NCBI GenBank assembly: GCA_041664925.1
Contig: JBAYJV010000001.1
Location: forward strand, 293,262 to 357,261
Direction: 5' to 3'
Source of the DNA: Minisyncoccota bacterium
Lineage (GTDB): Bacteria > Patescibacteriota > Minisyncoccia > JBAYJV01
Length of the DNA stretch: 64,000 nucleotides
In this document: positions 59,236 to 59,427 of the stretch, piece after piece
Position numbering within the stretch: position 1 is the stretch's first letter
Layout of the letters: each line of letters opens with the position of its first letter
Position numbers and translations under genes: made by a program
Notes under the pieces: generated by a model
What the model was told of the DNA's origin: nothing
The model's database searches: none
What the model saw: the letters and a program-made list of their open reading frames with translations, nothing else

Positions 59236-59263
59236 TTGATTTTTAGACACATTTTTGTATAAT
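59236..59263 (+). promoter_or_regulatory. sigma70-type promoter (TTGATT -35, 16-nt spacer, TG-TATAAT -10)
   Basis: near-consensus hexamers at 59236-41 and 59258-63. Confidence 0.5.
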
Positions 59264-59269
59264 AAAAAT

Positions 59270-59427
59270 ACAGAGAGGAAATCTCTATGCCAGAAGCGTT
59301 CATGGAGAAGGAGGAAACCATGAAGAAACGCCTCGGAGTGCTGTCTGTCGTTACCATCTGAACGCGTAACACAAAACAGGTGGAACACAAGTGACAGAAG
59401 AGGTAGAGAAGCATCTACCTCTTTTTA
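59270..59427 (+). ncRNA. short independent transcript (about 150 nt) with RBS and 14-25-codon hydrophobic ORF (M(PEAFMEKEET)MKKRLGVLSVVTI), ending in intrinsic terminator; sRNA or small-protein gene
   Basis: promoter, AGGAGG 7 nt before ATG 59320, stop 59359-61, hairpin GAGGTAGA-gaagca-TCTACCTC + T5 at 59400-59427; GC-rich relative to surroundings. Confidence 0.4.

Follow-up and report, generated by a model that had tools for sequence, protein, structure and literature searches.

Layout and coding signature of the unit

The window, which is the whole stretch of 64,000 nucleotides (64 kb) analysed here, has a GC content of 35% and derives from an uncultured member of the Paceibacteria (Patescibacteria; candidate phyla radiation, CPR). 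A micro-gene unit without any existing annotation is located in it, and comprises a promoter, a Shine-Dalgarno (SD) site, a 13-codon open reading frame (ORF) for the peptide MKKRLGVLSVVTI, a hairpin at the start codon and an intrinsic terminator (Table 1). The isoleucyl-tRNA synthetase gene ileS lies on one side and is transcribed divergently; an operon beginning with an extracytoplasmic function (ECF) sigma factor gene converges from the other side. At the sequence level the unit has its own promoter, ribosome-binding site (RBS), start codon, stop codon and terminator. It is probably a stand-alone, monocistronic protein-coding micro-gene, with the peptide as its selected product, as the comparison with related genomes suggests. 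An initial annotation of this DNA had given the ORF 14 codons; the ORF is indeed present, and the sense codons number 13, the fourteenth being the stop.

For the comparison, 160 ileS loci were gathered, 80 from GTDB species genomes and 80 from JGI metagenomes, and extra contigs were added through homologues of IleS and of the anti-sigma protein. Copies upstream of ileS were sought by blastn, nhmmer, a BLOSUM peptide scan and a covariance model. The unit was present only in one genus-level clade of the Paceibacteria (IleS at least 87% identical), which consists of the window and four further lineages (L082, L083, L162 and L168). Both the peptide and the hairpin, which the initial annotation had singled out, recur in these four lineages. 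In all five, the unit lies between the divergent ileS and the 3' end of the operon for the ECF sigma and anti-sigma factors; the polysaccharide-deacetylase gene that ends this operon in the window is absent from the L162 and L168 lineages.

The consensus of codons 1-12 across the five lineages is MKK[R/C]LGVLSV[V/I]T. The peptides of L082 and L083 are identical to that of the window despite three and six nucleotide changes, respectively, all of which are synonymous. Among the 11 variable columns of codons 1-12 in the five lineages, nine are third, two are first and none are second codon positions (hypergeometric P=6.7e-5); the first-position changes are R4C in L168, and V11I in both L162 and L168. 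The neutral baseline was taken from the four-fold degenerate sites of ileS, which show 59-72% pairwise identity and are invariant across four lineages in 40% of cases. Between the window and L083, the six differences all fall on synonymous third positions, against a neutral expectation of 4.5, and the 22 first and second positions are unchanged (P=1e-5 for a neutral identity of 0.593). Judged on these alignments, substitutions in the 13-codon frame follow the pattern of purifying selection on a protein. This pattern contradicts a purely non-coding, trans-acting small RNA (sRNA), which the initial annotation had listed among its suggestions. The selected product is more probably the peptide than anything else, and specifically its first 12 residues.

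The C-terminus is less uniform. The peptide ends in -VVTI in the window, L082 and L083 (13 residues), in -VIT in L168 (12 residues), and in -VITQYSRFREMTRD in L162 (23 residues). In L168 (MKKCLGVLSVIT), codon 13 (Ile13) is lost in frame, and this loss of exactly one codon is the sole change of ORF length among the lineages that retain the stop. In L162 (MKKRLGVLSVIT) the stop is lost, and an 11-residue extension (-QYSRFREMTRD) runs to a new stop inside the 5' arm of the terminator. The longer version of 25 codons in the initial annotation starts at an upstream in-frame ATG (59287); this ATG exists in the window, where it would give 24 amino acids, but it is absent from all relatives. An ATG inside UUCAUGG was rejected as a start because its frame is not conserved: it agrees with that of the ORF in two lineages but not in the other three (18- versus 19-nt spacing). 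Selenocysteine insertion or read-through of the TGA was also rejected, as the downstream frames, read by eye, are not conserved.

The constraint is unevenly distributed over the unit. Invariant columns make up 71% of the promoter (P=8e-4 versus the neutral 40%), 73% of the 5' untranslated region (5'UTR; P=3e-6) and 72% of the ORF. The spacer between the two divergent promoters reaches 33%, and the stretch from the stop codon to the terminator only 7%, with 24 of its 41 columns gapped; the distance from the stop to the terminator stem is 24-41 nt in four lineages. Against shuffles, the tendency of this 3'UTR to pair with the ORF's 3' half is marginal (fractions of 0.03-0.64 per lineage), and a Fisher combination of these fractions, computed by hand, is ~0.02.

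Table 1. Position of the unit, its parts and its neighbours in the window, and of the unit in the related loci.
Feature	Position	Strand	Remarks
Micro-gene unit	59236-59427	+	promoter, SD, 13-codon ORF, start-codon hairpin, terminator; no existing annotation
Sigma-70-type promoter	59236-59263	+	-35 TTGATT 59236-59241; 16-nt spacer; -10 TATAAT 59258-59263
HP1 stem-loop	59272-59286	+	AGAGA-GGAAA-UCUCU; 7-9 bp in relatives; just past the deduced transcription start
HP2 initiation hairpin	59296-59331	+	UUCAUGG 59299-59305 pairs with CCAUGAA 59318-59324; 12-nt loop with SD; start codon in 3' arm
SD AAGGAGG	59308-59314	+	5 nt before ATG 59320; invariant in all five lineages
Micro-ORF	59320-59361	+	ATG, 12 sense codons and TGA; encodes MKKRLGVLSVVTI
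Spacer (3'UTR)	59362-59395	+	stop codon to terminator; fast-evolving
Intrinsic terminator	59396-59430 (stem and T-run scored 59396-59425)	+	12-bp stem, 6-nt loop, U-tract
ileS	56156-59110	-	divergent from the unit
Polysaccharide-deacetylase gene	59437-60372	-	convergent with the unit; Pfam PF01522; last gene of the ECF operon
Putative anti-sigma gene	60449-61963	-	504 aa; no Pfam match; role suggested by position and predicted membrane helix
ECF sigma gene	61968-62540	-	first gene of the convergent operon
Unit in L082	2690-2888	-	full unit
Unit in L083	34-247	-	full unit
Unit in L162 (same as L163-L167)	2302-2491	-	full unit
Unit in L168 / L169			unit cut by contig end

Expression signals

A consensus scan gives 10 of 12 matches for the promoter of the unit. 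The region contains 10 promoter-like sites versus 6.0 +/- 2.8 in shuffled sequences; because the shuffles also give many sites, the consensus pattern alone is weak evidence for a promoter. Four lineages share an unchanged -10 box; the -35 box is identical in three and degenerate (CTTACT) in L162. This conservation is stronger evidence for a promoter than the consensus match. Transcription would start near 59270, as deduced from the position of the -10 box. The stem-loop HP1, which would open the transcript, is found in the minimum-free-energy folds of all four full-length lineages; its stem is nearly invariant and thus offers no covariation.

The initiation hairpin HP2 (GCGUUCAUGG / CCAUGAA..ACGC) is found in the minimum-free-energy fold of the window transcript, and its fold energy is about -11 kcal/mol in four lineages. 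The 5' arm and the loop (AGAAGCGUUCAUGGA.AAGGAGGAA) hardly vary. In L083 and L168, synonymous or coding changes disrupt the outer GCGU/ACGC pairs, and only a core of 7-8 bp is kept; the coding constraint overrode the RNA pairing there. The core is invariant in every lineage and therefore offers no covariation either. The fold of the whole transcript is more stable than that of shuffled sequences (z = -3.8). Moreover, the GC content of the unit reaches 0.42-0.48 versus 0.21-0.30 in the flanking intergenic DNA, with some coding stretches equally high.

The terminator was the sole terminator-like site within 2 kb in a pattern scan, with a fold energy of -16.6 kcal/mol in the window and of -10.7 to -19 kcal/mol across the five lineages (stem of 10-12 bp and U5-7). 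In L162 and L168 the stem differs by two double substitutions that preserve its pairing (G-C to A-U, and A-U to U-A); these compensatory changes indicate that the terminator hairpin itself is under selection. The T-run is conserved on the plus strand, and the tail on the minus strand is a poor U-tract. In all lineages the stop codon of the convergent gene is 10 nt beyond the terminator, and no gene follows on the same strand. The terminator may serve both strands and be shared with the convergent operon. On the signals the initial annotation was accurate: the near-consensus promoter with TTGATT and a 16-nt spacer, the short GC-rich transcript with an AGGAGG RBS, the placement of RBS and start codon in the loop and stem of a hairpin, the strong terminator, and the lack of a following gene on that strand all agree with the data above.

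Unusual SD site and codon usage

Only about 6 of the 54 long ORFs of the window carry an SD-like motif, and AGGAGG occurs eight times on the plus strand of the window. The AAGGAGG of the unit is exceptional, because the genome is poor in SD sites. Perfect SD sites mostly precede small orphan ORFs that lack a Pfam match; the starts behind such sites are at 14 (+), 4172 (-), 6382 (-), 13199 (+), 16736 (-), 31954 (+) and 63444 (-).

The codons of the micro-ORF are also unusual. A value like the codon adaptation index is 0.42 for this ORF versus 0.71 +/- 0.11, and 0.24% of 12-codon windows are as low; the GC content at third codon positions is 0.67 versus 0.29 genome-wide. The ORF uses both of the rarest Leu codons, the rarest Val codon, CGC, ACC and ATC. 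According to a hand count, G or C occupies 7-9 of the 11 third positions after the ATG in every lineage. The rare GC-ending codons together with the conserved 5'UTR suggest an extra selection on the RNA or on translation kinetics besides that on the peptide.

A second compact unit was observed at 25935-26107. It has a promoter-like site (TTGATT-17-TAAAAT), a perfect SD (AAGGAGG), a GC-rich ORF of 24 codons (MAVVMGCGPIPIIRRVPTNKKKHK, 25996-26070) and an intrinsic terminator (26090-26107). The peptide MAVVMGCGPIPIIRRVPTNKKKHK was absent from the protein collection that is described below.

Distribution and origin

The next relatives (IleS ~64% identical over the full length, anti-sigma protein 45-49% identical) are without the unit. 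In these genomes tRNA-Phe and tRNA-Gly genes or other genes precede ileS, and a convergent HU gene follows the ECF operon. No further copy was found in 0.75-1.2 Mb of related sequence with a profile hidden Markov model, the peptide scan and the covariance model, nor did more distant relatives have one behind the ECF anti-sigma gene, where the HU gene is located. The unit is a single copy without repeats or paralogues in the 64-kb window. A back-translated pattern of the peptide gave no matches in viral contigs, and in a blastn search of phage genomes the AT-rich promoter alone was matched. Peptide variants of 23-29 amino acids were absent from a collection of 15 billion proteins, which was queried by exact look-up and for which the 13-mer is under the minimum query length. 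In the searched relatives, no longer homologue of the ORF was detectable. An origin from a tRNA remnant was considered because the outgroups carry tRNA-Phe/Gly genes upstream of ileS; it was rejected, since the similarity was no better than that of shuffles.

Some further observations concern the ends and repeats of the related loci. The L168 and L169 contigs are two independent assemblies of one lineage (JGI 3300048658 and Logan SRR32234034), and they break at the identical base, which falls inside the inverted repeat of the initiation hairpin (…CATGG). This shared breakpoint may be due to heterogeneity among strains or to the influence of the palindrome on assembly. In L089, L090 and L092 (N-terminal 300 residues of IleS 68-72% identical), there are 2-3 tandem copies of a 37-nt unit, ATCCTTCGCTCCGCTCAGGATATAAGAAGTATCTTGT. 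These copies contain a hairpin, and are located between tRNA-Gly and the ileS promoter, approximately 100-250 nt upstream of ileS. A different tandem repeat, TTCTTATCCTTCCGCCAAGGTTCTCAGGCAGTCCTGAGG, is found in L088 about 580-700 nt upstream of ileS.

Neighbouring genes and other features of the window

The IleS of the window is 100% identical to an NCBI entry named 'MAG: isoleucine--tRNA ligase [Candidatus Paceibacterota bacterium]', and carries tRNA-synthetase domains. The operon for the ECF sigma factor, the 504-aa membrane protein and the polysaccharide deacetylase resembles the sigmaV-RsiV-PdaV lysozyme-response operons of Firmicutes. In the interval 46-64 kb, the ORFs with 110 aa or more were scanned against Pfam and gave domains of the ECF sigma factor, polysaccharide deacetylase, RecO, class II aminoacyl-tRNA synthetase (aaRS), S-adenosylmethionine synthetase, DUF11 and phosphoenolpyruvate (PEP) utilizers. 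The last of these occur at 46322-50682 (-), where three tandem paralogous genes of about 500 aa each have a C-terminal PF00391 (the mobile domain of PEP-utilising enzymes) alone. A repeat family, D1 (76% identity over 300 nt), marks this duplication.

The promoter and early 5'UTR of ileS (59140-59207, minus strand) form a stretch of 68 nt that is 94% invariant in four lineages versus the neutral 40% (P=5e-21), and that is more conserved than the coding sequence. It includes the promoter motif CTCTTTAATTTT...TGATATTAT (about 59178-59207), which lies between the unit and ileS, and which recurs in relatives without the unit (N-terminal 300 residues of IleS 67-75% identical). Further features of the stretch, whose fold is statistically ordinary, are a small 5' hairpin capped by a UUCG loop and, after it, a U-rich tract. 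The stretch may be a regulator-binding site common to both divergent promoters.

Rejected identities and target searches

No Rfam family reached the gathering score in the 64-kb window. At E<=10, both strands of 59100-59480 gave only chance-level fragments (SpR10 and L31-leader) and no T-box; moreover, no tRNA gene was found in the window. A T-box leader, which the initial annotation had already excluded from the orientation, was rejected because the unit and ileS occupy opposite strands (plus and minus, respectively) and the covariance model gave no match. The resemblance to a branched-chain leader or a remnant attenuator, which the initial annotation had mentioned, was not supported by the comparison. 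There is no same-strand gene downstream, no antiterminator in the predicted folds and no run of regulatory codons, and all of the 12 residues are conserved under ongoing selection, which would not be expected of a remnant. A single Ile codon is present at position 13 in three lineages and at position 11 in L162 and L168, without a tandem run. In the minimum-free-energy folds of four lineages the terminator is a separate element and no antiterminator alternative was seen, although suboptimal structures were not covered exhaustively; the segment that pairs with the ORF is 5' of the terminator and does not overlap it.

Two classes of secreted or processed peptides were also rejected. A pheromone of the SHP/PrgQ (RRNPP) type does not fit, as the Pfam-scanned ORFs nearby include no Rgg/PlcR/PrgX-type receptor or exporter and the C-terminus is the variable part. 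A precursor of the MccA type does not fit either: the peptide ends in Ile, Thr or Asp rather than Asn, and no MccB-like (ThiF/E1-like) gene was found over some 13 kb towards ileS, nor on the other side, where the window extends for another 4.6 kb.

Targets of a trans-acting RNA were sought only within the 64-kb window, where a full-length duplexfold scan was uninformative. One perfect complementarity of 17 nt was found, between 59334-59350 (codons 5-10) and 13270-13286, and was judged to be probably due to chance. The second site is in the gene at 13199-13804 (+), an SD-led orphan of 201 aa whose only homologue (L172/L175) is 75% identical. The match includes the codon TCT, which is unique to the lineage of the window. 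Pairing of the unit with the 5'UTR of ileS was rejected as well, with at most 8 of 9 nt by eye, a central mismatch and no covariation.

Proposed function and alternative explanations

If the unit is expressed as its signals predict, the near-consensus sigma-70 promoter would produce a transcript of about 155 nt from near 59270, opening with the small 5' stem-loop. The strong SD in the hairpin loop would recruit the ribosome, and initiation would require melting of the hairpin, because the AUG is paired in its 3' arm. Translation of 13 codons (12 in L168) would then yield MKKRLGVLSVVTI, which has a cationic head (MKKR) and a β-branched hydrophobic tail. Finally, the strong intrinsic terminator would end the RNA and keep it from extending, in antisense, into the convergent ECF sigma/anti-sigma(/deacetylase) operon. 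We infer the transcription, the translation and the gating of initiation by the hairpin from these signals. The peptide might target the membrane itself or a protein of the membrane or envelope, since it resembles the n- and h-regions of a signal peptide rather than an amphipathic helix; this proposal is based on composition and is tentative. Of the membrane micropeptide in the initial annotation, the part that the comparison favours is the translated peptide gene, and the membrane site is the doubtful part.

Several points weigh against a stand-alone peptide gene. The carriers are five close lineages, in which L162 and L168 share derived states and L082 is near the window, and the independent substitution events number only about a dozen. 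The C-terminus is not fixed, with Ile13 deleted in L168 and 11 unrelated residues added in L162, which would be odd if the free 13-mer were the active species. R4C is a non-conservative change. To our knowledge, 12-13 residues are fewer than in almost all characterised bacterial small proteins. The Pfam scans (46-64 kb) revealed no gene for an exporter, a modifying enzyme or a receptor nearby. The 5'UTR is as conserved as the ORF, and the ORF has rare GC-ending codons.

In a rival explanation the transcript has the main function, and the ORF is translated mainly to control the stability, structure or activity of the RNA. Such a dual-function or cis-sensing RNA might be a base-pairing or protein-binding sRNA acting through its conserved 5' part. 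It might also be a translation sensor, in which the rare codons and the AUG-occluding hairpin make the transit of the ribosome sensitive to the status of tRNA or ribosomes. We regard it as unlikely. The constraint on the 5'UTR equals that on the ORF, and the 15-nt stretch AGAAGCGUUCAUGGA is invariant while its pairing partner is only partly conserved; however, covariation is confined to the terminator helix, and the stems of HP1 and HP2 are nearly invariant. The transcript is a GC island with a stable fold, rare GC-ending codons in all lineages and an exceptional SD, but its 3' half is unconstrained and it has no Rfam match. The unconserved C-terminus of the peptide agrees with a function of the RNA, whereas the selection at the amino-acid level extends over all 12 residues and not just over a few codons. 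The 17-nt complementarity to the orphan mRNA would suit an sRNA; it has four mismatches in the sole homologue of that gene, and a match of this length is seen for about 3% of random 157-nt segments.

Other explanations are less probable. The unit faces the 3' end of the ECF operon in all five lineages, even without the deacetylase gene, which might point to a terminator controlled by a leader peptide. In such an excludon-like arrangement, read-through would send an antisense RNA into the operon; or the unit might insulate ileS from read-through of the operon by transcriptional interference. The order of a short SD-led ORF and a terminator, the stop codon of L162 inside the 5' arm of the terminator, and the tendency towards pairing between the ORF's 3' half and the segment immediately ahead of the terminator would be consistent with this. 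Nevertheless it is very unlikely, as no lineage shows a mutually exclusive antiterminator in its predicted fold, there is no run of regulatory codons, the terminator is strong, and the fold-back is barely above chance. A ribosome at a stop codon 24-41 nt before the stem (four lineages) is unlikely to cover all of it, and the synteny can be explained by the close kinship of the five genomes.

A type I toxin-like or other toxic membrane peptide, silenced by its structured initiation region, was another suggestion in the initial annotation. The small hydrophobic peptide with a cationic end, the own promoter and terminator, the highly structured mRNA with an occluded start codon and the lineage-restricted distribution would all fit. 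The hydrophobic stretch is nine residues long, though; for crossing a membrane, about 18 or more would be required. The check for an antisense partner found no conserved antisense promoter; the only minus-strand candidate downstream (59499-59470) is in the deacetylase gene that two lineages lack. The region opposite the 3' side of the ORF is not conserved, and the unit is a single copy without repeats. Such a toxin is highly improbable. Equally little credit can be given to a non-functional leftover, that is, a promoter, SD and signal-peptide-like N-terminus of a gene truncated when the ECF operon joined ileS, or a chance ORF in a GC-rich spacer. It could account for the likeness to signal-peptide n- and h-regions, for the restriction to the clade with the ECF-ileS gene order, and for the varying C-terminus and stop position. 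However, the substitution pattern since the split of the five lineages is strongly non-neutral, with the adjacent spacers at or below the neutral invariance, and neither a longer homologue nor a tRNA-derived origin was detectable.

The probable stand-alone micropeptide gene is a new family of a kind that is already known, the unannotated small-ORF gene; it is unusually short and is confined to one genus-level clade. A more specific proposal can be formulated, which is speculative and rather improbable. In this proposal the unit would be among the shortest stand-alone conserved genes so far, with a recent origin in one genus of the Paceibacteria. This recent gene of 12-13 codons would be a translation-coupled module that senses the status of tRNA or ribosomes and feeds back on the ileS promoter or the ECF operon, or would encode a cationic-hydrophobic 13-mer that is a membrane-active effector of an episymbiotic CPR cell. 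In the first case, the tRNA or ribosome status would be read out by the ORF itself, whose rare codons follow an exceptional SD and a hairpin that occludes the AUG.

Annotation pipelines do not see genes of such a small size, and next to nothing has been established on the small proteins and regulatory RNAs of the CPR. The unit is a clean, comparatively supported gene of 13 codons with full expression signals, in a genome that hardly uses SD sites. If the peptide or its translation is functional, the lower size limit of stand-alone bacterial genes would be extended, and the unit would help to study how genes specific to a lineage are born, possibly de novo, in ultra-small genomes. The immediate impact is modest, with five closely related metagenomic lineages and no functional lead.

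Comparison with known systems

Leader-peptide attenuators, such as pheM-pheST, ilvL, ivbL and trpL in Enterobacteria, share with the unit an SD-led ORF (13 codons in the unit, rich in Val/Leu/Ile/Thr) followed by a terminator, and a location beside an aaRS gene. In these attenuators only the regulatory codons are conserved; whereas the unit is transcribed away from ileS and has neither a downstream gene nor an antiterminator. The T-box leaders (RF00230) are likewise structured, GC-rich RNAs with a terminator in the intergenic DNA by ileS. The unit is on the wrong strand for such a leader, gives no model match at E<=10, and has a protein-coding substitution pattern.

The dual-function sRNAs SgrS/SgrT, RNAIII/delta-haemolysin and SR1/SR1P are also short structured transcripts with their own promoter and terminator and a small ORF, and the conservation of the 5' part and the ORF is a further similarity. 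The unit differs in that no conserved target complementarity was found, the ORF makes up a quarter of the RNA, and the 3' non-coding part is unconstrained. With the Ibs/Sib systems it has in common a very short hydrophobic ORF, a structured mRNA and an occluded initiation region. The Ibs peptides, of 18-19 residues, are the shortest known type I toxins; the peptide of the unit is shorter, has no antisense partner, is encoded by a single copy and has a polar or variable C-terminus.

Among the shortest peptide genes are mccA, which encodes the 7-aa precursor of microcin C, and those of the pheromone precursors of the SHP/XIP/PrgQ type (17-23 aa). The tiny ORF with a strong SD and a following hairpin is similar to these, and the MKK- head with a hydrophobic tail resembles the SHP and PrgQ precursors. 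The unit lacks the C-terminal Asn and a nearby MccB-like gene, receptor or exporter, and the C-terminus, which becomes the mature pheromone in such systems, is its least conserved part.

The closest likeness is to the stand-alone small-protein genes, for example those of the staphylococcal PSM-alpha peptides (20-22 aa), SpoVM (26 aa), and MgtS and AcrZ of E. coli. Compared with these, the 12-13 residues of the unit are about half of the shortest well-characterised members, cannot span a bilayer and, in our own reading, are not amphipathic; there is no partner gene nearby, and the distribution is limited to one genus-level CPR clade. The shared features include an own promoter, an SD, a tiny ORF and a terminator, a hydrophobic peptide with a charged end, and purifying selection. 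Like other small-protein genes, the unit was missed by the gene callers.

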